This document shows positions 5,407 through 34,404 of a stretch of DNA of 35,867 nt, piece after piece; positions within the stretch are counted from its first letter, which is position 1, and each line of letters opens with the position of its first letter. The DNA comes from a virus. Taxonomy: Duplodnaviria > Heunggongvirae > Uroviricota > Caudoviricetes. Under the pieces are notes generated by a model. The model worked only from the letters and a program-made list of their open reading frames with translations. It searched no databases and was not told where the DNA came from. The stretch is from IMG/VR virus record IMGVR_UViG_2648501437_000030. One strand, written 5' to 3'. The position numbers and the translations under genes were made by a program.

Positions 5407-5676
5407 ATGGCAAAAGTAATCTTTGAATTTAACCGCATGGAAGATGTTGAGTTTCAGAAAAAAGGAGGTTTCTTTGTAGGAATGAGTGTGCAACTGGAAG
5501 AACAGTCTCCTAAGGAGCAAACCGGACCGCATGACGTGATGGCAGGCATTATCAAGAGCATGGCTCCTGAAATTATTGAAAAAGCAACCCAGGAGTTGTT
5601 GAAGTCAGCCAGAGAACTTGGGCTGGAAGCCGAAGGCGAGTTATTCCGGTATAACCCGGATGCAGCCAAACATTAA
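5407..5676 (+). CDS. Hypothetical early-region protein
   Basis: 90 aa ORF with RBS GAGGAA; no family recognised. Confidence 0.5.
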   Translation: MAKVIFEFNRMEDVEFQKKGGFFVGMSVQLEEQSPKEQTGPHDVMAGIIKSMAPEIIEKATQELLKSARELGLEAEGELFRYNPDAAKH

Positions 5677-5692
5677 TTTCAGGGAAGGAGGC

Positions 5693-5983
5693 ATGATGAT
5701 AATCACTCGCAAAAGATGGTCACGCGAAGACCGGGAATTTATCGAAGCCAGTGTCGGGAAAATGACCGTCGAGGAAATGGCGAAAAAACTGAACGTTGCC
5801 CCAACCGCCCTACAGGCACATGCCAGAAGGCACGGAATATCGTTGTGTGCATACCGGGTCAGTGAGCACGACAAATATTTGTGTCGTGAACTTTATAAAG
5901 AAGGGCTGGCTATTCATGTCATTGCCCAAAAGATGGAATTAAGCAATCGTGCTGTATCCAGCATTGTATACAGCGAATATTAA
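5693..5983 (+). CDS. Hypothetical early-region protein with possible helix-turn-helix segments
   Basis: 97 aa from ATG 5693 (RBS GGAAGGAGG); HTH-like stretch EEMAKKLNVAPTALQAHARRHGI. Confidence 0.5.
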   Translation: MMIITRKRWSREDREFIEASVGKMTVEEMAKKLNVAPTALQAHARRHGISLCAYRVSEHDKYLCRELYKEGLAIHVIAQKMELSNRAVSSIVYSEY

Positions 5984-7345: not shown

Positions 7346-7727
7346 CGCAGAGAAAAATGAAATTAAATCCGCATCCGCCAGCACCAGAAAACATCTTTAT
7401 GATTTTTATGTCGCCTATAACCAGTGGTTAAAAAACGGAGCGCAAGAAACGGAAGGGGAAGGGTTTATTCGGGGAGTCGGATTATGCGCCAATGTTTATG
7501 ACTATTTTGAATCAATCGGAGCAGACAGCGAGGCTGCGCTAGAACAATTACATGCGGATTTTGTCGCGAGTGGGCTGGATGAATCCCTGCCATTTAATGT
7601 AGATAACGTGCACTACCATGATGAATGCCTACATGACAGATGCCACCTGAATTCTGCTCGTGTGGCATGGGTCGAAAAACACTGCATTAAGGAGATGGGG
7701 CAAAATGAGTCGCACATCCCTGATTAA
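7338..7727 (+). CDS. Hypothetical acidic early accessory protein with Cys/His cluster
   Basis: 129 aa; start overlaps upstream stop; HYHDECLHDRCH...HC motif; no family recognised. Confidence 0.5.
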   Translation: MNNAEKNEIKSASASTRKHLYDFYVAYNQWLKNGAQETEGEGFIRGVGLCANVYDYFESIGADSEAALEQLHADFVASGLDESLPFNVDNVHYHDECLHDRCHLNSARVAWVEKHCIKEMGQNESHIPD

Positions 7728-8256
7728 ATTAATTCATGTTGCCCGCCGGGAGTTGCACCTCGACGATGACACTTACCGCGCCTTTCTGGTGCAGTGCACG
7801 GGCAAAACCAGTTGCCGCGAGCTGTCCGTTGCACAACTGGAACAAGTGCTCGATGCCATGAAAGAGCGCGGTTTTAAAAAGCAGAATAAACATCCCCGCC
7901 GTCGCTTTAAGGGGCATGTCACACCGCGCGAGAAGATTTATAAAATCTGGCAGCAGATGTTTCTTGATGGTTTCGTATCCGATATCAGCGACGCCGCGCT
8001 GGACAAATACGTTGAACGCCTGACGGCCAGACGTAATGGCGGTCAGGGTGTTTCCACGCTGGCATGGTGTCACGGGGAATCGTTGCAGGTTGTGCTCGAA
8101 ACGCTCAAACAGTGGCACATGCGCTGCATCCGTGAAGCCTTTGCCCGACATGGTGTGCCTTTACCTGTAAGCCCATCCGGGCGGGAACTGCGCGGCTATG
8201 ATGCACTGACCAGTGCGTATGCCCGCGCACGAAACAGCGGGAGAATTGCTGTATGA
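7705..8256 (+). CDS. Mu gp16/GemA-like early protein
   Basis: 183 aa from ATG 7705 (RBS AAGGAGA); N-terminus MSRTSLIKLIHVARRELHLDD resembles the Mu gp16 family; located just before mor. Confidence 0.6.
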   Translation: MSRTSLIKLIHVARRELHLDDDTYRAFLVQCTGKTSCRELSVAQLEQVLDAMKERGFKKQNKHPRRRFKGHVTPREKIYKIWQQMFLDGFVSDISDAALDKYVERLTARRNGGQGVSTLAWCHGESLQVVLETLKQWHMRCIREAFARHGVPLPVSPSGRELRGYDALTSAYARARNSGRIAV

Positions 8257-8702
8257 AACAGATGAAAGAGCAGGATTTATTCGAAGACCTCCGGGACGAC
8301 AGCGTTCTGGAATATCTTCATGATTACCAGGAAAACACCGCTTATCCGGCGTTACTTTCTGAACTAAACGCACTGCTGCGTAAAGAGCTGGCCCGGATTG
8401 GCGCAGACCCTGCTCATTCCCTTGAGCTGGTTGTGGCGATTTGTCGCCATATCGGCGGGATGCAGGTTTATGTTCCGAGGGGGAATATTCTGGAGAATCT
8501 TGTCCGGGATATGCGTATCTGGCGTGATTTTAACGGCCATAATATTCCTGAACTGGTTCAGCGTTACGGAGTGACGTATAAAACCGTCTACAAGGCCATC
8601 AAACGGATGCGACGTCTGGAGCGCAATAAATACCAGCCGGATTTGTTTTACCCCTCCCCGAACCTGCCTCACCCCGTTCGTCGTCCGCCACGACGCCCTT
8701 AA
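8253..8702 (+). CDS. mor: Mor/C-family transcriptional activator
   Basis: 149 aa; DPAHSLELVVAICRHIGGMQVYVPRG and C-terminal HTH YGVTYKTVYKAIKRMRR match Mu Mor as recalled. Confidence 0.85.
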   Translation: MKQMKEQDLFEDLRDDSVLEYLHDYQENTAYPALLSELNALLRKELARIGADPAHSLELVVAICRHIGGMQVYVPRGNILENLVRDMRIWRDFNGHNIPELVQRYGVTYKTVYKAIKRMRRLERNKYQPDLFYPSPNLPHPVRRPPRRP

Positions 8703-8706
8703 TCAA

Positions 8707-8732
8707 TGAAGCCGGTAAATCCGGCTTTTTTT
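8707..8732 (+). terminator. Rho-independent terminator after mor (GCCGG-TAAAT-CCGGC plus T7)
   Basis: Short GC stem, 5-nt loop, T-run; the same 26-mer recurs at 16428..16453. Confidence 0.7.
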
Positions 8733-8787
8733 ATGCCTCCGGCACCATGAAGCAGACCACGTTTAACTCTGCTTCACAGGTGTTTTT

Positions 8788-9384
8788 ATGGAAAATCAAA
8801 AATTCTCCCCGGCCTTTGAGCATGCGCTGAATTTCATTCTGCGTCCCGATATCGAAGGCGTCTATGTCAATGACTCCACTGACCGTGGCGGCGAAACCAA
8901 ATACGGCATTTCTGACCGCCGCGACGGTGTGATTGACGGCAAAACCGATGTCAACGGTGACGGTAAACCGGATACCCGCATCAAAGATTTAACCCGCGAA
9001 CAGGCCGCACAGATTTACCTGCGTGATTACTGGCTGCCTGCCGGATGTGACCAGTGGCCTGATGGCGTGGCGCTTTTTGTGTTTGATGCGGCGGTTCAGC
9101 ATGGCGTTAAAAAGGCTATCAAACTTTTGCAGGAAGCCGCTGATGTGGATGCTGACGGCATCATCGGGCCGCGTACCCGCAAGGCCGTGAGCCAGTCCAC
9201 CCCTGACTGGCTGCTGGCCCGCTGTATTGTCCGTCGCTCCCGCTTTTATGCCGACATCATCAAATCAAAACCCGCCCAGGGCAAATACCTGAACGGCTGG
9301 TTTAACCGCATGGAAAAGCTGACCGACGCCTGTCTGGAAATCATCGATACCCCTCTGGGCATCATGTCCGCCACGCGGGGGTGA
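8788..9384 (+). CDS. Endolysin (GH108-like N-terminal domain plus C-terminal peptidoglycan-binding domain)
   Basis: 198 aa; DRGGETKYGIS catalytic-region motif and C-terminal GWFNRM motif; first late gene after mor. Confidence 0.8.
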   Translation: MENQKFSPAFEHALNFILRPDIEGVYVNDSTDRGGETKYGISDRRDGVIDGKTDVNGDGKPDTRIKDLTREQAAQIYLRDYWLPAGCDQWPDGVALFVFDAAVQHGVKKAIKLLQEAADVDADGIIGPRTRKAVSQSTPDWLLARCIVRRSRFYADIIKSKPAQGKYLNGWFNRMEKLTDACLEIIDTPLGIMSATRG

Positions 9385-9385
9385 T

Positions 9386-9613
9386 ATGGGCAAAGGCTGG
9401 GATGCCTCACTGAAAGCCGGGCGGCGTGACCGCCTGCGTCAGGAGGTTCTGCACCGCATGGCCGGAGGTCCGCCCCCGAAACCGCTGGACTATACCGGCC
9501 ATGACGGCACACACGCCAGCTACTACATGCGTGGCTGGAACTCCGTGGATACACGGGACGTTTTCTGGCAGTGCCAGAAGTACAAGGAAAAACTCAATGC
9601 ACAGAATGAATAG
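9386..9613 (+). CDS. Hypothetical lysis-region protein
   Basis: 75 aa, start 1 nt after endolysin stop; no family recognised. Confidence 0.45.
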   Translation: MGKGWDASLKAGRRDRLRQEVLHRMAGGPPPKPLDYTGHDGTHASYYMRGWNSVDTRDVFWQCQKYKEKLNAQNE

Positions 9614-10007
9614 TCTTTTTTATCGCGTTATGTACTCCCGCTTTATGTTGTCCACGTGGTCGTTTCTGGGGCTGTCGGCAGTGCTTTTTCTGGCGAGCTG
9701 TTTTGCCGGATGGCGGGCGTTTGCGGTCATGGTGTTGGCATATGGCGCGACACTCTGCCTGATTCACAGCTTTCAACTGGGCAATGTGCCTTATCGCTTG
9801 CTACCAAAAAGACGCTATCGACCAGCCTCTCGCCGTATTGTCGTGTGGTCATGGGTGGTCTGGTTCGTCGGGTATTTCATGTTGGTGTTCAGCATCTTTT
9901 TTCTTAAAGAGCTTTATCAACTGGCATTTTTGCTGGGCGGTGTCTGCTGCGCGGCGCTTTATAAACACCAGCGCCGTTTTCATAAGGGGGATTCATGGAC
10001 CCGTTAA
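9597..10007 (+). CDS. Polytopic inner-membrane protein in the lysis cassette (holin or exclusion-type candidate)
   Basis: 136 aa from ATG 9597; several hydrophobic helices (LSTWSFLGLSAVLFLASCFAGW, VVWSWVVWFVGYFMLVFSIFF). Confidence 0.55.
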   Translation: MHRMNSLFYRVMYSRFMLSTWSFLGLSAVLFLASCFAGWRAFAVMVLAYGATLCLIHSFQLGNVPYRLLPKRRYRPASRRIVVWSWVVWFVGYFMLVFSIFFLKELYQLAFLLGGVCCAALYKHQRRFHKGDSWTR

Positions 10008-10603
10008 CCCTTTCAGGCATCGCCTCTGTTCTGCTGAAAGCTGGGCCGGGGCTGATTCGTTCCGTCGGGCGCTGGTTTGGTGGCAGTACATCTGCCGCCG
10101 CTGACTCGGTGGCCGGTATGGTGGAAAGTGTCCGGGAAAGCCTGCCGGTGGCTGAACAGCAACGCATTCTGGAACAAAAACTGGTGATGTTGTCACCGGA
10201 GCAACTGATGCAGCTGGAAACCCTGAAAGTTCAGCTGCAACAGCTGGAGGTGGAACGGCAGAAGCTGGTGCTGGCTGACCAGCAGGCCGCACACCACGAA
10301 CAGCAGGAAACCATCCGCAATGGTGACAACGCCACGGACAGCTATGTGCGCCAGACACGCCCGCTGCTGGCCCGCCTTTCCTGTTACAGCAGTCTGGCCT
10401 ATGTGCTGTTGCTCTCCTGCGGCCAGATTGCCGGAGCCATTGCCGGTGCCAGAGGTATCACGCTGCATATGCCATCACCGGACTGGGATATCACGCTGAT
10501 GTTGCTTACCCCGGCGCTGGGCTATCTCGGTGTAAGAACCCTTGACGGCTTTGCCCGTTACAGCAAATCAAGCCGTCACAAAATGTCTGCGGGGCCGAAA
10601 TGA
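9995..10603 (+). CDS. Membrane protein with central coiled coil and C-terminal hydrophobic helices (3TM-holin-like)
   Basis: 202 aa, RBS AAGGGGG; coiled-coil QLMQLETLKVQLQQLEVERQKL; C-terminal TM segments. Confidence 0.55.
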   Translation: MDPLTLSGIASVLLKAGPGLIRSVGRWFGGSTSAAADSVAGMVESVRESLPVAEQQRILEQKLVMLSPEQLMQLETLKVQLQQLEVERQKLVLADQQAAHHEQQETIRNGDNATDSYVRQTRPLLARLSCYSSLAYVLLLSCGQIAGAIAGARGITLHMPSPDWDITLMLLTPALGYLGVRTLDGFARYSKSSRHKMSAGPK

Positions 10604-10827
10604 CCGACGAAATCGATCGCATCAGTGAAGTGGTTCTGAACGAGCGTCAGAGCGTCGTTAAAGCCTGGCAGACACGGACAAAAGAAGCGCCCCACAGCCG
10701 GGGCTTCTGCAATGACTGCGGGAACGTTATTCCGGCACAGCGCCTTGCGGCGCTGCCGGATGTGGTGACCTGTATTGACTGTCAGCAGATGCGGGAACGC
10801 AGGAGGAAAACGTGTCCTGGGAAATGA
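10600..10827 (+). CDS. TraR/DksA-type C4 zinc-finger protein
   Basis: 75 aa; CNDCGNVIPAQRLAALPDVVTCIDCQ four-cysteine zinc ribbon. Confidence 0.7.
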   Translation: MTDEIDRISEVVLNERQSVVKAWQTRTKEAPHSRGFCNDCGNVIPAQRLAALPDVVTCIDCQQMRERRRKTCPGK

Positions 10828-11117
10828 TCAGAGCCAACTGGCCCATTTTGTGGGCATTGCTGATGACAGGAATAAACCTGCTTCAGCTGATTCTGGCGAA
10901 AACCTACGTCAAACGTGAAGAGTTTGATTCACTCCGTTCCCGCGTGTCGGTGATGGAAAGCCAGGTACACCATTTACCCGACCGTGATGAGTTCCACCGT
11001 CTGCAACTGGATATCAGCAACCTGCGGGGAGAAATCAAAGAGCTGGGGCCATCCATCCGCCAGGTATCCCGCATCAGCGATTTGTTATTAGAGAACGAGT
11101 TAAAGGAAAAAAATTAA
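10812..11117 (+). CDS. Membrane-anchored coiled-coil protein (Mu-like DUF2730-type)
   Basis: 101 aa; N-terminal TM helix then coiled coil; conserved position before the packaging genes. Confidence 0.55.
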   Translation: MSWEMIRANWPILWALLMTGINLLQLILAKTYVKREEFDSLRSRVSVMESQVHHLPDRDEFHRLQLDISNLRGEIKELGPSIRQVSRISDLLLENELKEKN

Positions 11118-11410
11118 TGGCGATGAAAGAGATCCTCACTGAAGACCGTCGTCTGGTGTTGCTGCGTTCCCTGCTGGACTGTGGCGACAGCGCGAATGAA
11201 TCCGTGTTGCAGACCTGCCTTCAGGCTTACGGTCATAAGGTATCCCGTGATGTGGTGCGCACCCAGCTTGCATGGCTTCGCGAGCAGGGGTTGGTTCGTC
11301 TGTCTGATGTGGGCGGCTGTTACGTGGCTGAAATCACCGGCAGCGGCGAGGATGTGGCAAACGGCCTGTCCAGCGTTCCGGGCGTTAAAAAACCCCGTGC
11401 GAGGGACTGA
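11117..11410 (+). CDS. Hypothetical protein, possible winged-helix
   Basis: 97 aa ORF upstream of the packaging genes. Confidence 0.55.
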   Translation: MAMKEILTEDRRLVLLRSLLDCGDSANESVLQTCLQAYGHKVSRDVVRTQLAWLREQGLVRLSDVGGCYVAEITGSGEDVANGLSSVPGVKKPRARD

Positions 11411-11412
11411 GC

Positions 11413-11712
11413 ATGGCCCGAAAACTGAAGCCGTTAAGTCGCGGAGAACGGGCCGTCGTGCGGCAGCTGGCGTACTGCCTTGTGCTGGCAGATATTGAGC
11501 AAAAGGCCATTGCCTGTGCATACGAACAACAGACCGGAAAGCCCTGGAACCCGGATGCACCGGATACCCCCATGAAACGTGCCCTGCGTTCATCACCGGC
11601 ATGTGCGCGGCTGTGGAAGCTGCTGGGTAAGGATATCCGCTCCGTTCGCGAAGAAATATACGCCGGTCTGAAAACACCGGGAACTGAAGACGGGGGCCGT
11701 CGTGAACCGTAA
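11413..11712 (+). CDS. Hypothetical protein
   Basis: 99 aa ORF tightly linked (3-nt gap) to the upstream gene. Confidence 0.5.
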   Translation: MARKLKPLSRGERAVVRQLAYCLVLADIEQKAIACAYEQQTGKPWNPDAPDTPMKRALRSSPACARLWKLLGKDIRSVREEIYAGLKTPGTEDGGRREP

Positions 11713-11849
11713 AAAGAATCCGATAAGTAAAGCGTCCCGTGATGAACTCCGCCGTCTGGCGCACAACCTGACATGGCGTGAAATCCAGAGTGGCGCGCTG
11801 AAATCTGCATACGAAAGTTCACAGCGTAGTGAGCAACAGGAGGGCACAC

Positions 11850-12431
11850 ATGGAAAATGAACAACGCCCCACCCGTGGCCGTCTTTCCAAAGTGGATTTA
11901 CTCCCGGACAGCATCCGGGAGCAGTTGCATCAGATGCTGCGGGAAAAGCGGCACACGCAGGAAGAAATCCGCGAAGCCATCAATGCCCTGATTGACGAAC
12001 ATAACCTGCCGGAAGAGATGCAGTTAAGCCGGACGGGCTTAAACCGCTACGCCATCCGCATGGAAAAAGTCGGGGCCAAAATCCGCGCCTCCCGCGAAAT
12101 GGCCGAAGTCTGGGCGGCAAAGCTGGGTTCTGCGCCGACGTCTGACGTCGGCAAGCTGCTGATGGAGTTTGTAAAAACGCTGGCCTTTGAAACGTCCATG
12201 TCGATGGCAGAAGACGACAAGCCAGTTGCACCGAAAGCGCTGGGGCAACTGGCGCTGGTTGCCCAGCGTCTGGAAGCGGCAGCCATGACCAGCCATAAAC
12301 GCGAGAAAGCGATCCGCGATGCGTTTGCGCAGGAGATGGCAGAGAAAACCGAAGAACTGGTCAGAACGGGCGGTCTGTCAGGCGGTACGGCTGACACCAT
12401 CAAACGAGACATTCTGGGGATTAGCGTATGA
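11850..12431 (+). CDS. Mu gp27-like terminase small-subunit candidate
   Basis: About 193 aa from ATG 11850 (RBS CAGGAGGG); overlaps the start of the large terminase gene. Confidence 0.65.
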   Translation: MENEQRPTRGRLSKVDLLPDSIREQLHQMLREKRHTQEEIREAINALIDEHNLPEEMQLSRTGLNRYAIRMEKVGAKIRASREMAEVWAAKLGSAPTSDVGKLLMEFVKTLAFETSMSMAEDDKPVAPKALGQLALVAQRLEAAAMTSHKREKAIRDAFAQEMAEKTEELVRTGGLSGGTADTIKRDILGISV

Positions 12432-13963
12432 CACAGATGAACACGTTCAGTGAATACGATGTTCTGCTGCCGTATCAGAAACGCTGGGTGGCGGATGATG
12501 CCGACCTGAAAATTGCCGAGAAATCCCGCCGTACCGGTTTAACCTGGGCGGAGGCGGCAGATGCGGCACTGACGGCATCGCTGAAGAAGGAAGACGGCGG
12601 GCGCGATCACTTTTATATCGGTTCGAATAAGGAGATGGCCCGCGAATTTATCGACGCTGTGGCGATGTGGGCGAAAGCGTTTAATGCGGCAGCGGAAGAA
12701 ATCTGCGAGGAAGTGATCACCGACGAAGACAAGGACATTCTGACGTTCGTCGTGTACTTCGCCAGCGGTTTTAAGGTCAAGGCACTGTCCAGCAACCCGA
12801 GCAACATTCGCGGGATGCAGGGGAATGTCACCATCGACGAGGCCGCGTTCCATGAAAAACTGGACGAGCTGCTGAAGGCTGTGCTGCCGCTGAAAACATG
12901 GGGCGGCAAAATTCGCCTTATTTCCACCCATGACGGCGTGGACAACCTGTTCAACCAGCTGATCCAGGAAAGCCGCGCGGGCAAAAAAGATTACAGCATT
13001 CACACCATCACGCTGGACGACGCCTGCAATGACGGGCTGTACCGACGTATCTGTCAGGTGCGCGGCATGGTGTGGTCACCGGAAGCCGAGGCGGAATGGA
13101 AAGAAGGTCTGCTGCGAAATACCGCCACCCGCGAAGACGCACTGGAGGAATATTACTGCGTCCCGAAAAACGGCGGCGGCACGTATATTCCCCGCTCACT
13201 GCGTGAACGTGCGGCCCGTGGCACCGGAAAAGTGCTGCGCTTTACCGGCACACCGGAATTTAACGCACTGACGGAAAGTCAGCGCCGGGCAGATATCCGG
13301 GAATGGCTGGAAACAGTGGTGCGCCCCGAGCTGGAAAAACTCCCGAAGAACCTGCGCCACTGTCTGGGGGAAGACTTTGCGCGTTCGGGTGACCTGACCG
13401 TACTGGCCCCGGTGACGGTGAACGACGACACCACCCGCCAGGTGCCGTTCCTGGTTGAGCTTGCCAATGTGCCGTTTAAACAGCAGGAACAGGTGCTGTT
13501 CTGGCTTTGCGATCGTCTGCCCCGTCGTGACGGTATCAAAATGGATGCGCGGGGGAATGGTCAGTATCTGGCAGAACAGGCGGCAGAGCGGTACGGCGAT
13601 GAAGTGGAACAGGTGATGCTGTCCGTGGCGTTCTACCGCGAAAACATGCCCCGTTTCCGTGCGGCGTTTGAAGATGATGAGTTGATCCTTCCGAAGCATG
13701 AAGACGTGATCAATGACCTCGGGGCCATTCAGTTGCTGCGTGGCGTTCCAGGCATTGATGATTCACGAACCAAAGGCAGCGACGGCCACAAACGTCACGG
13801 CGACGCCGCTGTGGCCATTTTCCTGGGCTTCCTTGCCAGCAAGGATGACAGCCACCGTTACGAACTGCACCGCCTGAACCGCCCGGCGAAACCGGAAGAA
13901 CGCAACGCGCGCCGCCAGATGAAGCTGACGCGCGGCCTGAAAAATGAGGGAGGTTTACTGTGA
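12428..13963 (+). CDS. Terminase large subunit (Mu gp28-like)
   Basis: 511 aa; conserved position and size; stop overlaps the portal start. Confidence 0.85.
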   Translation: MTQMNTFSEYDVLLPYQKRWVADDADLKIAEKSRRTGLTWAEAADAALTASLKKEDGGRDHFYIGSNKEMAREFIDAVAMWAKAFNAAAEEICEEVITDEDKDILTFVVYFASGFKVKALSSNPSNIRGMQGNVTIDEAAFHEKLDELLKAVLPLKTWGGKIRLISTHDGVDNLFNQLIQESRAGKKDYSIHTITLDDACNDGLYRRICQVRGMVWSPEAEAEWKEGLLRNTATREDALEEYYCVPKNGGGTYIPRSLRERAARGTGKVLRFTGTPEFNALTESQRRADIREWLETVVRPELEKLPKNLRHCLGEDFARSGDLTVLAPVTVNDDTTRQVPFLVELANVPFKQQEQVLFWLCDRLPRRDGIKMDARGNGQYLAEQAAERYGDEVEQVMLSVAFYRENMPRFRAAFEDDELILPKHEDVINDLGAIQLLRGVPGIDDSRTKGSDGHKRHGDAAVAIFLGFLASKDDSHRYELHRLNRPAKPEERNARRQMKLTRGLKNEGGLL

Positions 13964-15531
13964 ACCTGAAACAACTGGCCGGGGCCGTTCGCCGTCTGCT
14001 GAACCCGGCAACCGGTGAGGAAGACACGCTGAAAAAAGAGGCGCTCAACGAAGCACAGGCCCGTCCGCGTCATGCCGGTGTGCGTTCGGCCTCGCCGGGT
14101 ATCAGCGTCGCCTCCGGGCTGAACCCCGGCAGGCTGGCAGGCATTCTGCGCAATGCTACTGACGGCATCACGCGTGATTTTTTTATCCTTGCTGAAGAGA
14201 TGGAAGAACGCGATTTGCATTACGCCTCGGTACTGCGCACCCGCAAGCTGACGGTGGCGGGTATCGAACCGGTGGTGGTGGCCGCCAGTGATGACGATGC
14301 TGACGTGCAACTGGCGGACGCCATCCGTGCACTGATGGAGGCACCGCAAATCCCTGAGCTGATGTTTGATCTGCTCGACGGGCTGGGAAAAGGCGTGGCG
14401 GTCTGTGAAATTTTGTGGAACACCCGCAACAACCACTGGGTGCCCCGTGATTATGAGTGGGTTGATCCCCGTTTTCTGAAAGCCGAAAAACCCACGCTGC
14501 GCCAGTTCCGCCTGCTGACGGACGATGAACCGGTGGATGGCGTACCGCTGACACCGGGAAAATTCATTGTTCACCAGCCGCGCCTGAAATCCGGTTTGCC
14601 GTTGCGTAACGGTCTGGCCCGTCTGGTGGCGGTGATGTATATGCTGAAATCCTTTACCGTGCGCGACTGGTGGGCATTTGCGGAAAAATTCGGCATTCCG
14701 GTCACGGTGGGGAAATACGGTCCCAACGCCACGGAGGAACAAATCCGCGTGCTGATTGATGCGATTGCGTCCATTGCCTCGGATGCCGGGTGTGCCATTC
14801 CGCAGTCCATGCAACTGGAGATGCAGGAAACCGCCAGCCGGAATAACGGCGGCGCACTGTTCCGTGAAATGGCGGAATGGTGTGATGCGCAAATCAGTAA
14901 GGCTGTGCTGGGGCAGACCATGACCACGGATAACGGCAGTTCGCGTTCACAGGCGGACGTGCACAATCAGGTGCGCATGGACATTGTGCGCTGGGACGCG
15001 CGGCAGCTGGCTAACACGCTGAATGAATATCTGGTGCGGCCCTACATCGAGGCCAACTACGGGCCACAGGCGCACTACCCCCGTGTTGTTCTGCGTATCA
15101 GTGAAGCGGAAGATCTGAAGGCGCTGACAGATGCTCTGGTGCCGCTGATTGACCGGGGGATGCGGGTTCAGGAATCGGAGCTGCGGGACCGGTTCGGCCT
15201 GGCTGAACCGGACGACGGGGCTGATGTTCTGCATCCGGTGTCTGCCGGAATGTCAGGTGATGTGGCGATGAACCGCGAGCGCGTCGCCCTGAACCGGGAA
15301 CACCCCGACGAACTGGCACAGATGGTGGATGATGCCCTGCGTGACTGGCAGAAAACCGGCGAAGCGTTCACGAACCCGGTGCTGACACTGGCGCAGGAAT
15401 GCGACAGTTTTGATGACTTTCTGAAACGCCTGCCTGAGCTTCAGGAAACGCTGAACGCGGACGACTTTGCCCTGCAACTGGCGGAGGTGTGCTTTAAGGC
15501 GCGTGCGCTGGGGGACACTGCTCATGCGTGA
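13960..15531 (+). CDS. Portal protein (Mu gp29-like)
   Basis: 523 aa, GTG start with RBS GAGGGAGG; follows the terminase. Confidence 0.85.
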   Translation: MNLKQLAGAVRRLLNPATGEEDTLKKEALNEAQARPRHAGVRSASPGISVASGLNPGRLAGILRNATDGITRDFFILAEEMEERDLHYASVLRTRKLTVAGIEPVVVAASDDDADVQLADAIRALMEAPQIPELMFDLLDGLGKGVAVCEILWNTRNNHWVPRDYEWVDPRFLKAEKPTLRQFRLLTDDEPVDGVPLTPGKFIVHQPRLKSGLPLRNGLARLVAVMYMLKSFTVRDWWAFAEKFGIPVTVGKYGPNATEEQIRVLIDAIASIASDAGCAIPQSMQLEMQETASRNNGGALFREMAEWCDAQISKAVLGQTMTTDNGSSRSQADVHNQVRMDIVRWDARQLANTLNEYLVRPYIEANYGPQAHYPRVVLRISEAEDLKALTDALVPLIDRGMRVQESELRDRFGLAEPDDGADVLHPVSAGMSGDVAMNRERVALNREHPDELAQMVDDALRDWQKTGEAFTNPVLTLAQECDSFDDFLKRLPELQETLNADDFALQLAEVCFKARALGDTAHA

Positions 15532-16288
15532 AACCCTCATCCCGAAAGAGGCGCTGGCGTGGCTGAAGGCGAAGAAGCTGCGCCCCGGTTTTGATTACCG
15601 GGATGTATGGCGGGAAGAACACCGGAACAGCTTCACCGTGGCAAAAATGCTGCAACTGGATTTGTTGTCGGATGTGAAAGTCCTTGTGGAAGACGCCCTG
15701 CAAAGCGGACAGACGTTCAGCGAGTTCCGGGAGGCGCTGCAACCGCTGCTGATAAAACGCGGATGGTGGGGTGTTCAGGAGATGGATGATCCGCTGACGG
15801 GCGAAACCCGAACCGTACAGCTGGGCAGCGACCGCCGCCTCCGCACGATTTTTGACACCAACATGCGCACTGCCCGCGCGGCGGGCCAGTGGGAACGCAT
15901 TCAGCGAACAAAGCGGGCCATGCCGTATCTGATTTACGAGCTGGGGCCATCCCGCGAGCACCGGGCGGAGCATGTGAAATGGGCGCGTCTGTGTCTGCCG
16001 GTAGATCATCCGTTCTGGCAGACACATTTTGCCCCTAACGGCTGGGGCTGCAAATGCACCATCCGTCAGGTCAGCCGTGGTGAGTATGCGCAACTGGCGG
16101 CACAGGGCACCATTCACACCGAAGCGCCGGAAATCAGAACCGTCCGCTGGGTGAATAAACGCACGGGCGAAGAGGAAGACGTGCCGGAAGGGATTGATCC
16201 GGGCTGGAACTACAACCCCGGCATAAACCGTGAGCAGGAGCTGGCACGCCAGCTGGCAGCCAGACAGGCACGTTTTGACAGTGAATAA
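15524..16288 (+). CDS. Head morphogenesis protein (Mu F / gp30-like)
   Basis: About 254 aa from ATG 15524, overlapping the portal stop. Confidence 0.8.
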   Translation: MRETLIPKEALAWLKAKKLRPGFDYRDVWREEHRNSFTVAKMLQLDLLSDVKVLVEDALQSGQTFSEFREALQPLLIKRGWWGVQEMDDPLTGETRTVQLGSDRRLRTIFDTNMRTARAAGQWERIQRTKRAMPYLIYELGPSREHRAEHVKWARLCLPVDHPFWQTHFAPNGWGCKCTIRQVSRGEYAQLAAQGTIHTEAPEIRTVRWVNKRTGEEEDVPEGIDPGWNYNPGINREQELARQLAARQARFDSE

Positions 16289-16427
16289 CCCTCCCGCCGT
16301 AAATCCCCCTGAAACGCATCAGAAACGCGTTTTTTATTCTGATGGTGTGAATGTGCATTCTGACTTTTTTGAAGGTGCTGTGGCGTTTTTGAAGGGGTTT
16401 TGAAGGGGGGGGGCTTCCCGTTTTCAG

Positions 16428-16453
16428 TGAAGCCGGTAAATCCGGCTTTTTTT
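16428..16453 (+). terminator. Rho-independent terminator before gene I (exact copy of the 8707..8732 element)
   Basis: TGAAGCCGGTAAATCCGGCTTTTTTT identical 26-mer. Confidence 0.65.
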
Positions 16454-16502
16454 CTGCCTTCCGCATACTGACCGTCGGTAACCCCAGACGACGGAGACTG
16501 AC

Positions 16503-17465
16503 ATGAAACCGGAACTGCTGGCGCTGTGTTTTTCCCTGCCAGAACCCATCCCTGAGCTGACACCTGCTCAACTGCCGGAATGGCTTGAACTCGTTCCTGC
16601 GGGTGAGTTCACCGGGCGCGATGGCCGGACGTGGATTAACCGCAATCCGCATGAGGTGGTTGCCCGTTCGTCCGACATCAAAATTCCGGTGGACATTGAA
16701 CACGCCACCGAAATTAAAGGGCAACGCGGTGATGAAGCCCCGGCGTATGGCTGGGTGGAAGAACTGCGGGTGACAGACAGCGGCACCATTGAAGGCCGTG
16801 TTGTCTGGAGCGAATACGCCCGGTGGATGCTGAGCGAGCGCCGCTACCGCTATTACAGCCCGGCGTTTTTCCATGACGCGGAGGGTGTGGTGACGCGCCT
16901 GTCCAGCGTCGGGCTGACCAACAAACCTAATCTGGACTTTCCTGCACTGAATACGGAGAAAAACCCGATGACAGTACCTGTGCAAATCACCGGCCTGCTT
17001 GGGCTGGCTGAATCTGCCACGGTGGACGATACCGTGGCCGCCATTAAACAACTTCAGGAGAACGAACAGGTGGCGCTGAACCGCGCACAGACACCTGACC
17101 TGACGAAGTTTGTACCGGTGGAAACCCACAATCTGGCACTGAACCGTGCCGAAACCGCAGAACAACGCCTTCAGCAACTGGAAGAGAAGGAAGCAGAAGC
17201 GCTTGTGGATGCGGCCATCGAAGCCGGAAAAGTGGCCCCGGCAAACCGTGACATGTTCCTTGCCACCTGCCGCACGGAAGAAGGCCGCAAACAGTTTGCG
17301 GAGTACACCAAAGGTGCACAGCCGCTGGTGAACAACGACAAGCCCAGCCAGGGCAAGGATAAACCCGCGCAGACACTGACCGACGCCGAACTGGCGATGT
17401 GCCGCAGCATGGGTATTACCGGGGAAGAGTTCCTCGCCGCTAAACCTAAACAGGAGAATAACTGA
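16503..17465 (+). CDS. Head protease/scaffold protein (Mu I-like)
   Basis: 320 aa; Mu I-like N-terminal region and coiled-coil C-terminal scaffold part; RBS GGAGAC. Confidence 0.8.
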   Translation: MKPELLALCFSLPEPIPELTPAQLPEWLELVPAGEFTGRDGRTWINRNPHEVVARSSDIKIPVDIEHATEIKGQRGDEAPAYGWVEELRVTDSGTIEGRVVWSEYARWMLSERRYRYYSPAFFHDAEGVVTRLSSVGLTNKPNLDFPALNTEKNPMTVPVQITGLLGLAESATVDDTVAAIKQLQENEQVALNRAQTPDLTKFVPVETHNLALNRAETAEQRLQQLEEKEAEALVDAAIEAGKVAPANRDMFLATCRTEEGRKQFAEYTKGAQPLVNNDKPSQGKDKPAQTLTDAELAMCRSMGITGEEFLAAKPKQENN

Positions 17466-18367: not shown

Positions 18368-18392
18368 CCCGTCATCCGTAATCTGTAACCCG

Positions 18393-18441
18393 CAGTTAAA
18401 AGGCGCTGTGAATGCCCTTTTAACTGCCTTTTAAAAGGCAG
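18393..18441 (+). terminator. Tandem hairpins after the major head gene
   Basis: CAGTTAAAAGG...CCTTTTAACTG followed by palindromic CTGCCTTTTAAAAGGCAG. Confidence 0.55.
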
Positions 18442-26972: not shown

Positions 26973-27499
26973 ACGCCATTGCCCGCCGTCTGCGGCTGCT
27001 GGTTGATCGTGCCGTTGTCCGCATGGTGTCTGACAGTCTGGAGCGGCAGAACCTGCAAATCCAGACGCTGGCAGATGCCACTGACGACGACGTGGAACGC
27101 TTCCAGAACTACGGGTTTACTTCCGTTCCGCCGGAAGGTTCTGAAGCCATTGTGCTGGCCGTTGGCGGACGGCGTGACGGGCTGGTTGCCATCGCGGTGG
27201 AGGACAAGCGATGTCGCCCGAAAGGACTGTCCCCCGGCGATGTCCGGCTTTATCACCGGGACGGCAAATCACACATCACCCTGAAGGAAAACGGCGTCAT
27301 TGAAATCACAGGAGAACAATTAAACGTTTCAGGGAAAACGGTAAATCTCACCGCCGACGAATTGCTGAATATTATCGGTAAACAAATGAAATTCGTCGGT
27401 CCCTGTGAATTTACTGAAGATGTCAGAATCAACGGTAAATCATTCATCGAACACATTCATAAGGACGGCGACAATGAGAATACATCACCGCCCGTATGA
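26963..27499 (+). CDS. Baseplate assembly/spike protein (Mu gp45-like)
   Basis: 178 aa from ATG 26963 (MGLNAIARRL...). Confidence 0.75.
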   Translation: MGLNAIARRLRLLVDRAVVRMVSDSLERQNLQIQTLADATDDDVERFQNYGFTSVPPEGSEAIVLAVGGRRDGLVAIAVEDKRCRPKGLSPGDVRLYHRDGKSHITLKENGVIEITGEQLNVSGKTVNLTADELLNIIGKQMKFVGPCEFTEDVRINGKSFIEHIHKDGDNENTSPPV

Positions 27500-34303: not shown

Positions 34304-34331
34304 GACGATCGATAACATCATATCGATCGTC
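34304..34331. promoter_or_regulatory. Perfect 11-bp inverted repeat with two GATC sites upstream of com/mom
   Basis: GACGATCGATA-acatca-TATCGATCGTC, GATC at 34307..34310 and 34325..34328, about 75 bp upstream of the com start. Confidence 0.45.
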
Positions 34332-34404
34332 GGTTTGCATCAGTTGTGATTAAATACCCCCAGCCCTCCGGGCGGTCATGTCTGGTTATTACACAGGGGG
34401 AATC

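Follow-up and report, generated by a model that had tools for sequence, protein, structure and literature searches.

One Mor-family activator and predicted Mor sites ahead of late operons in a Mu-like prophage of Escherichia coli RM11911

Results

The stretch of DNA analysed here, called the window, is the whole 35,867-nucleotide (nt) IMG/VR virus record IMGVR_UViG_2648501437_000030, and it corresponds to a Mu-like prophage of Escherichia coli RM11911, with 100% identity over the stretches compared. Phage Mu has two paralogous activators, Mor and C; the window encodes one, a 149-residue Mor orthologue (8253..8702, plus strand). We judge it likely, reasoning from sequence comparison, that the lytic cascade of this phage has two tiers, in which the single Mor protein would directly drive the late operons with neither a C protein nor C-type promoters. 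Copies of a site homologous to the mapped Mor site of the Mu middle promoter Pm are found before the endolysin gene and before the head protease gene I, a third, candidate site lies inside a baseplate gene, and the arrangement recurs in a set of 12 relatives. These comprise ten loci from a scan of species-representative genomes (Mor 66-71% identical), Klebsiella phage Kp4866-3 and a prophage of E. coli ECONIH4, and represent the genera Pluralibacter, Raoultella, Klebsiella, Serratia, Kluyvera and Brenneria as well as E. coli.

A single Mor/C-family gene

Six-frame translation of the window gave 821 stop-to-stop segments of at least 25 residues each. Searched by phmmer (--max) with Mu Mor, Mu C and the window protein as queries, this set yielded a match to 8253..8702 only, the next best segment having an E-value above 0.4. 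A profile of 126 diverse family members, with E-values of about 1e-45 for Mu Mor, about 1e-47 for Mu C and 1.4e-46 for the 8253..8702 protein, found no second match in the six frames of the window either (next best E=0.45), and hhalign comparison of 20 small open reading frames with the Mor family gave no probability above 8.6%, the best being a homologue of the Mu early protein E8, taken as 5618-5983 and used as a single sequence. An earlier note on this DNA, made from its letters alone, had proposed that only one Mor/C-family activator is present, with no C gene between mor and the lysis gene, and had suggested a family profile search of all open reading frames. The proposal holds: by all three methods 8253..8702 is the sole match, mor is followed after 85 nt by the endolysin gene, and no second family member is found in the whole prophage. 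The note's outline of Mu is correct in that C lies between mor and lys, but gp18, gp19 and gp20 intervene between mor and C.

Two reading frames had been named in the same note as possible divergent homologues, 5693..5983 and 11117..11410, and both fail as Mor/C genes. The former (5696-5983) encodes the E8 homologue, 86% identical to the Mu protein, for which profile-profile comparison gives a probability of 20% that reflects a generic helix-turn-helix (HTH) only; the latter (11123-11410) encodes a homologue of Mu gp26 (61%). The E8 and gp26 genes both coexist with Mor and C in Mu.

The prophage splits gspE, a gene of the type II secretion operon, whose 5' fragment occupies the window from 1 to about 897. 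A Mu-type left end begins at 902 (TGTATTGATTCAC...), and the right end (…TTTTTCGTGCGCCGCCTCA; also given as …CGTGCGCCGCCTCA) lies about 190 nt past the last base of the window, within the split gspE. Since the whole prophage is inside the window except for this non-coding right end of about 190 nt, no C gene is hidden outside. The 5 bp beside the prophage ends (898-915; about 190 nt beyond 35867, L004 3776-3967) are, with the ends placed as here, GCAGG on the left and TCCCG on the right, which does not resemble a Mu-type 5-bp target duplication.

The activator is of the Mor type

The 8253..8702 protein matches Pfam model PF08765 (Mor) with E=3.6e-30 and 104.6 bits (cut-off 24.9) over profile positions 3-107 of 107, and the solved Mor structure 1RR7 with E=4e-52 (residues 7-131). 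Its identity is 63% with Mu Mor and 32% with Mu C. The linker G-G-x-x-x-Y-x-P-x-G, invariant in Mor and C (C residues 70, 71, 75, 77 and 79; PMC2582627), appears as GGMQVYVPRG, and in a 38-member alignment G68, G69 and Y73 are invariant and P75 nearly so. Size and charge follow the family pattern: by a count made by eye, residues 1-60 of the 149 contain about 13 acidic (D/E) and 6 basic (K/R) residues, and residues 75-149 about 17 basic and 6 acidic. The recognition helix, TVYKAIKRMRR, has the form TVYKAI(K/R)RMRR across the clade and in Mu Mor, unlike that of Mu C, QIYQIIARQRK. On these comparisons we assign the protein as a Mor orthologue with a Mor-type recognition helix.

Clamp-binding motifs described for Mor and MuC are an N-terminal Qx[D/E][L/M]F and a C-terminal QPDLF, Mu Mor having only an N-terminal DLF (PMC12867686, 2026). 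In the window protein the N-terminal motif is EQDLF, and residues 128-132 (8634-8648) are an exact QPDLF, where Mu Mor has QPSLL. It ends in a 17-residue Pro/Arg-rich tail, YPSPNLPHPVRRPPRRP (8634-8699 region), seen only in an E. coli/Salmonella sub-lineage with forms of 146-151 residues. QPDLF as a general trait of single activators was ruled out: many proteins of the close clade end in QYSLDME, and QPDLF occurs in 18 of 121 family representatives, so that the motif in the window protein may serve as a lead only. Some family representatives (P0088, P0090, P0107, P0116, P0129 and others) are 220-280 residues long and are matched by the query in two stretches, as tandem double Mor-domain proteins; they are of interest because a tetramer has been reported for Mor and C (bioRxiv 10.1101/2025.05.02.651988).

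Mor-type sites before the endolysin gene and gene I

In the Mor dyad of Mu Pm, two 5-bp repeats flank a G/C-rich hexanucleotide; the dyad has its centre at -43.5 (PMC4390567) and occupies -51..-36 (PMC4287176). Primer JM6 gives positions -57..-52 of Pm as GTAAAC, followed by AGTA (PMC4390567). Together these positions identify the mapped Mu site as AGTAA-AGCCGG-TTAAT (AGTAAAGCCGGTTAAT), and a hexamer TATCCT lies 22 nt downstream of it. In the window the 16-mer AATGAAGCCGGTAAAT (AATGA-AGCCGG-TAAAT; box 1, 8705..8720, plus strand) agrees with the Mu dyad at 13 of 16 bases and begins 2 nt past the mor stop codon, the same offset as in Mu. It is followed by CCGGCTTTTTTT and then, 22 nt from the box, by CACCAT (8743..8748, plus strand), at the same gap as TATCCT in Pm. 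Because the box, its offset and the distance to the -10-like hexamer all agree, we read the mor-Pm junction as orthologous between Mu and the window phage. CACCAT is the predicted -10 element of a lys and packaging promoter whose transcript is predicted to start near 8756; relatives carry CAAAAT, CAATAT, CACTAT or CACAAT in the same register.

A hairpin with a run of seven T residues (8708..8732, plus strand; 8-bp stem, -12.6 kcal/mol, z=-3.5) is predicted to end the early operon as an intrinsic terminator. Box 1 falls partly within it, and it takes up the -35 region of the predicted promoter; the Mu annotation has the same overlap, with Pm at 9163-9233 of the Mu record and a terminator predicted by TransTermHP at 9179-9200. 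A terminator directly after mor, followed by the endolysin gene, had been described in the earlier note; the hairpin and T-run are indeed there, with the endolysin gene starting at 8788, but they are not a separate feature. Since the hairpin overlaps the counterpart of the Mor-dependent Pm, the terminator probably also serves as the target of the activator.

There are exactly two copies of the 25-mer GAAGCCGGTAAATCCGGCTTTTTTT in the window, at 8708 and at 16429 (through 16453), where 0 such repeats are expected by chance, and the 25-mer is part of a 49-nt repeat that is 86% identical between 8696-8744 and 16417-16465. The second copy contains box 2 (AGTGA-AGCCGG-TAAAT; 16426..16441, plus strand), the predicted activator site of the head operon, which matches the Mu Pm dyad at 14 of 16 positions and box 1 at 15 of 16. 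It lies in the 214-nt gap before gene I and shares with the box 1 site the hairpin and T-run (16429-16453). CATACT (16464..16469, plus strand), 22 nt after box 2, is the predicted -10 element of the gene I promoter, with CATACT, CACACT or GACACT at this place in relatives, and the head operon is predicted to start near 16477. Boxes 1 and 2 thus both have the Pm-type structure of 5 bp, a G/C-rich 6-bp spacer and 5 bp. A consensus scan of 8000-17000 found no full sigma-70 promoter. The counterparts of Mu positions -57..-52, described as an UP-like stretch for the C-terminal domain of the alpha subunit (PMC4390567), are TTAATC at lys and GTTTTC at I, against GTAAAC in Mu; both are A/T-rich, but the A3 tract, found to be important in Mu, is not kept.

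The genes around these sites are all on the plus strand. The penultimate gene of the early operon is a gemA (gp16) homologue (7705..8256; Pfam GemA E=1.4e-32; 82% identical to Mu GemA; gp16 family protein in RefSeq), whose stop codon is overlapped by the mor start, as in Mu. The first gene after the Pm-like promoter encodes a GH108 endolysin (8788..9384; Pfam Glyco_hydro_108 E=1.2e-23, PG_binding_3 E=1.7e-17). Next is a homologue, 68% identical, of Mu gp18 (9386..9613), which follows the endolysin gene in all relatives. As gp18 is the first gene of the Mu middle operon, its homologue marks the endolysin operon as the counterpart of the Mu middle operon merged with the lys operon, without C. 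Gene I (16503..17465), the first gene of the second late operon, encodes a head protease (phage protease in RefSeq; 58-62% identical in relatives).

Two further features adjoin box 2. Just upstream, at 16367-16413, are three direct repeats TTTTGAAGG (16367, 16387 and 16398) and a G9 run; relatives have a repeated TTTAAACG(N)GG at this place, and Mu has its strong gyrase site in the equivalent G-I gap. Immediately behind the predicted -10 element begins a hairpin CCGTCG…CGACGG (16472-16494), whose 3' arm overlaps the ribosome-binding site. Its stem is kept in relatives, with a compensatory change in only one of seven predicted pairs, and it may act in stabilising the 5' leader or in translation.

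A candidate third site in the baseplate V gene

A position weight matrix (PWM) trained on the relatives' sites only was applied to the window, with 30 shuffled windows as background (maximum averaging 13.7 bits, highest 18.0). Box 2 at 16426 scored 25.0 bits and box 1 at 8705 scored 24.9 bits; a candidate box 3 at 27331 came third with 17.5 bits, and the next best match in the window reached 13.9 bits. Other 16-mer matches with three mismatches (4142, 11424, 24136, 9013 and 8341) have no -10 element in register, no hairpin and PWM scores of at most 13.9 bits, and were rejected. Box 3 (AGGGAAAACGGTAAAT, AGGGA-AAACGG-TAAAT; 27331..27346, plus strand) has a less G/C-rich spacer and no hairpin, and lies in the baseplate V gene, 165 nt before a GP46-family gene at 27496. 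A candidate -10 element, TATTAT (27370..27375, plus strand), is 23 nt downstream, and relatives have xATxAx at the same offset (TATTAT, CATTAT, GATTAA, GATAAA). CACCAT, CATACT and TATTAT, at 22, 22 and 23 nt from boxes 1, 2 and 3, are -10-like hexamers with no -35 element, and an internal tail transcript would probably start near 27382.

The position of box 3 is also the third-best PWM match in Kp4866-3 (19.8 bits) and in the 68%-identical ECONIH4 prophage (18.8 bits), and the best match on either strand in 44 of 46 IMG/VR loci. Codon conservation was compared in 40 non-redundant baseplate V genes. Codon 123 specifies five different amino acids and has A as third base in 37 of 40 genes; codon 126 likewise specifies five amino acids, with a third base G in all 40. 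Gly124 is GGG and Asn128 is AAT in 39 of 40 each, and Val127 is GTA or GTT only, in agreement with the one variable position of the box. Across the gene the mean majority fraction at third positions is 0.69, and the 22 nt flanking box 3 are not conserved. Because third bases are fixed while amino acids vary, the pattern points to selection on DNA rather than on protein, and box 3 is a candidate functional analogue of the Mu promoter PP. Upstream of it, two hairpins (GTTAAAAGGGC-type and CTGCCTTTTAAAAGGCAG) at 18386-18441 take up the gap of 78 nt that follows the major head gene T, where Mu too has a predicted terminator; they could attenuate transcription into the tail genes, which would give an internal tail promoter at box 3 a purpose.

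Conservation among relatives

All 12 relatives have a single Mor/C match and share the gene order gemA, mor, GH108 endolysin and gp18 homologue, continuing through terminase, portal and F to I and T. The box is found before the endolysin gene in 11 of the 12 and before gene I in 10, L014 being left out of the gene I count. In four relatives (L010, L011, L016 and L017) the right hairpin arm at the I site is degraded while the 16-mer, AGGGAAAGCGGTTAAT or AGTGAAGCCGGTTAAT, is intact. Since the 16-mer survives where the hairpin arm does not, we read the box, and not the terminator, as the conserved object. Several relatives (L002 7962-8304, L006 7765-8298, L017 606-929 and others) have a variable, AT-rich, moron-like open reading frame for a small membrane protein between mor and the box. 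The window has no such frame, and its mor abuts the box as in Mu.

C-type signals and the com/mom region

A PWM built without the Mu site ranks the Pm box first in the 7.5-36.7 kb region of Mu, at 21.6 bits, and gives no match at Mu Plys, PI or PP; according to published work, neither Mor nor C activates the promoters of the other (PMC4287176). In Mu, C boxes of the form TTAT-N5-6-ATAA with a conserved CCATAAYCCC precede lys, I, P and mom. Among matches to TTAT-N6-ATAA in the window, none is at a late promoter, and CCATAAYCCC occurs 4 times, against 4.1 expected, with no copy upstream of a late operon. A repeat CCCCGGCATAA(A/C)CC at 16213, 18354 and 19103, considered as a C box (compare Mu CCATAACCCC), was rejected: all copies are coding, and the Mu motif is at chance frequency. 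The window therefore departs from the three-phase cascade of Mu both in having no second paralogue and in having no C boxes at its late operons.

Neither a Mor-type nor a C-type box was recognised upstream of com/mom or at the equivalent of Mu PP inside gene N. The best com/mom promoter candidate has an extended -10 element, TGATTAAAT (34347-34355). A clean deletion of about 30 nt carrying the C box upstream of com was considered and dropped, the alignment with Mu being ambiguous and the spacing to the com start differing by only about 10 nt. Also upstream of com/mom is a perfect 28-bp palindrome, GACGATCGATA-ACATCA-TATCGATCGTC (34304-34331); it carries two CGATCG (GATC) sites and resembles the Dam/OxyR region of Mu Pmom.

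Single activators in other Mu-like phages

By tblastn against a phage collection, the window protein matched 64 places in 50 records and Mu C matched 68 places in 54 records. The same number of records, 14, had two places in both searches, and they belong to the Muvirus group (Mu, D108, SfMu, PhiR68_1, Mu_3F6 and the Yersinia vB_YpM phages), with C proteins at least 98.6% identical. Every other Mu-like phage of the collection, including those of Vibrio, Burkholderia, Pasteurella, Shewanella, Pseudomonas, Klebsiella and Ralstonia, had one. Since two Mor/C genes occur only in the Muvirus group, a single activator is, on gene counts, the norm among Mu relatives, and the two-activator cascade of Mu looks like an elaboration. 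The earlier note had called a single-activator arrangement a simplified cascade; the descent that this implies is reversed by the distribution, in which 14 of 54 records have two genes and the others one. A literature search found no open-access paper analysing the promoters of single-Mor enterobacterial Mu-like phages.

Discussion

The two-tier cascade that we favour would proceed as follows. The early operon would end with gemA and mor and be stopped at the hairpin and T-run at 8708-8732. Mor would then bind a 16-bp imperfect dyad (5 bp, a G/C-rich 6 bp, 5 bp) centred near -43.5 at promoters with a weak -10 element and no -35 element, and would there recruit sigma-70 RNA polymerase, as at Mu Pm. 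Box 1 would drive the endolysin gene, the gp18 homologue, the lysis and packaging genes, portal and F; box 2 would drive the head and proximal tail genes; and box 3 would probably boost the genes of the distal baseplate and tail fibres. At boxes 1 and 2 the module of about 49 nt would halt incoming transcription and allow restart only with Mor, insulating each operon. The suggestion in the earlier note that one activator drives the late promoters directly is thus upheld in part: it fits the lysis/packaging and head operons and, as a candidate, the distal tail genes, but no box was recognised at com/mom or at the PP equivalent.

A more speculative extension, which we offer tentatively and think somewhat doubtful, is that the module (8696-8744 and 16417-16465) is a portable "stop-and-restart" cassette. 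Its hairpin would terminate, the left arm and loop would be the Mor site, and copying of the module in this lineage would have rewired late operons to a middle-type activator, with the third site held by synonymous selection. The MuC-type QPDLF may then couple late transcription to replication and so join the jobs of Mor and C in one protein.

Several observations weigh against direct control of the late operons by Mor. Mor and C are highly promoter-specific, and a protein that has diverged by 37% could have shifted in specificity. The hexamers CACCAT and CATACT are weak as -10 elements. The score of box 3, taken alone, is in the shuffled range (17.5 against a maximum of 18.0), and this box lies in a conserved peptide (G-K-x-V-N) and has no T-rich spacer of the kind found at boxes 1 and 2. 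The Pluralibacter relative L006 has no box before gene I, and with no box found for com/mom at least one late function needs another explanation.

The repeat might be only an intrinsic terminator or a mobile terminator-like element, with the late genes expressed by read-through from the early promoter or from unrecognised promoters and Mor controlling something else or the first operon only. Both copies do fold as a canonical hairpin with a T-run, and TransTermHP annotates the Mu counterpart as a terminator; the -10 hexamers, too, are weak. We nevertheless consider it improbable. The 16-mer corresponds to the mapped Mor site and is kept in the four relatives that have lost the hairpin arm, a -10-like hexamer stands in register at 22-23 nt, and box 3 is free of a hairpin yet held by synonymous-site conservation; moreover, the head and tail genes would go unexpressed behind two strong terminators if there were no restart. 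It is equally improbable that a non-homologous regulator has taken the place of C, with Mor acting on the first operon only and a product of that operon acting with or after Mor on the later ones. The candidate would be a C4 zinc-finger protein of the TraR/DksA type (10600-10827; PF01258 E=7e-11), whose gene lies in the first Mor-box operon, has no Mu counterpart and is present in nearly all relatives. In favour of this reading, com/mom have no recognised Mor box, and small zinc-finger proteins do serve as late activators in P2-type phages (Ogr/Delta). However, TraR/DksA proteins bind RNA polymerase rather than DNA, and the 10600-10827 protein may be a modulator of that kind. The box before gene I is identical to that before lys at 15 of 16 positions, so no new specificity is needed there, and Mu has counterparts of the remaining small HTH proteins too (E8 and gp26) but needs C all the same.

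That the prophage is a defective Mu-type derivative, a dead end from which the middle operon and C were deleted, is the least probable account and a very remote one. In its favour, the interval from the gp18 homologue to the lysis genes has none of gp19, gp20 and C of Mu, no obvious 5-bp target duplication was seen at the ends, and some tail-fibre fragments of RM11911 are pseudogenes in RefSeq. Against this, 12 relatives, counted as eight genera of Enterobacterales and with proteins 57-71% identical, have preserved the layout, as have dozens of IMG/VR contigs. Its locations in chromosomes are many, with up to three places per E. coli genome, and one is on a plasmid; the relative Kp4866-3 was deposited as the genome of a phage. 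Late operons with Mor-type rather than C-type boxes would not arise by simple deletion, and all non-Muvirus Mu-like phages of the collection carry one Mor/C gene.

The early-middle-late cascade of Mu is the textbook model for transposable phages. In the lineage described here, near enough to Mu that the mapped Mor site can be read across directly, middle-type (Pm) promoters appear to serve late operons without C. The lineage offers a natural comparison for what the extra C tier buys Mu and for how the promoter specificities of Mor and C diverged. For annotators there is a caution, namely that the "terminator" after mor is probably an activator site as well. Three predicted promoters and a 149-residue protein make a small, easily tested activator-promoter set. 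The advance is incremental: the databases already contain Mu-like phages with a single activator, and the proposed mechanism is the known mechanism of Mor.

Comparison with known systems

The closest known system is Mor and Pm of Mu. The proteins are 63% identical with near-identical recognition helices, the activator gene closes the early operon, behind gemA, and a gp18 homologue lies downstream; the promoters share a 16-bp dyad 2 nt past the stop codon, the overlap with a terminator, a -10 element 22 nt on and the want of a -35 element. In Mu, however, there is one such promoter, driving gp18-gp19-gp20-C, whereas the window has two certain copies of the site and one candidate before late genes. 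Mu Mor also differs in having neither the C-terminal QPDLF nor the 17-residue tail. Between mor and lys Mu has, in order, Pm, gp18, gp19, gp20, C, a terminator and Plys, of which the window has no gp19, gp20 or C. Mu C belongs to the same family and is similar in the role proposed here for the window protein, that of one activator for lysis, head and tail operons acting at sites near -43.5, with lys and I promoters in equivalent places. It differs in its 32% identity to the window protein, in its recognition helix and in its sites, as the window has neither TTAT-N6-ATAA nor CCATAAYCCC boxes at the late operons; the candidate tail site of the window is in the baseplate V gene and not in N, and none was recognised before com/mom.

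BcepMu (gp01), KS10 (gp27), Vibrio phage martha 12B12 and the Mu-like phages of Pasteurella and Shewanella resemble the window in having one family member per genome, and in KS10 the Mor gene is directly followed by late genes (PMC2628397). Their proteins are only 27-39% identical to the window protein, which, as a close Mor orthologue, allows its sites to be compared with the mapped site of Mu. By analogy only, P2 Ogr and P4 Delta may be set beside these: there one small zinc-finger activator acts directly on several late promoters that have no -35 element, but the protein family is unrelated and the site architecture is different. The layout of the window is a variant wiring of a well-known activator/promoter pair, typical of Mu relatives rather than exceptional.

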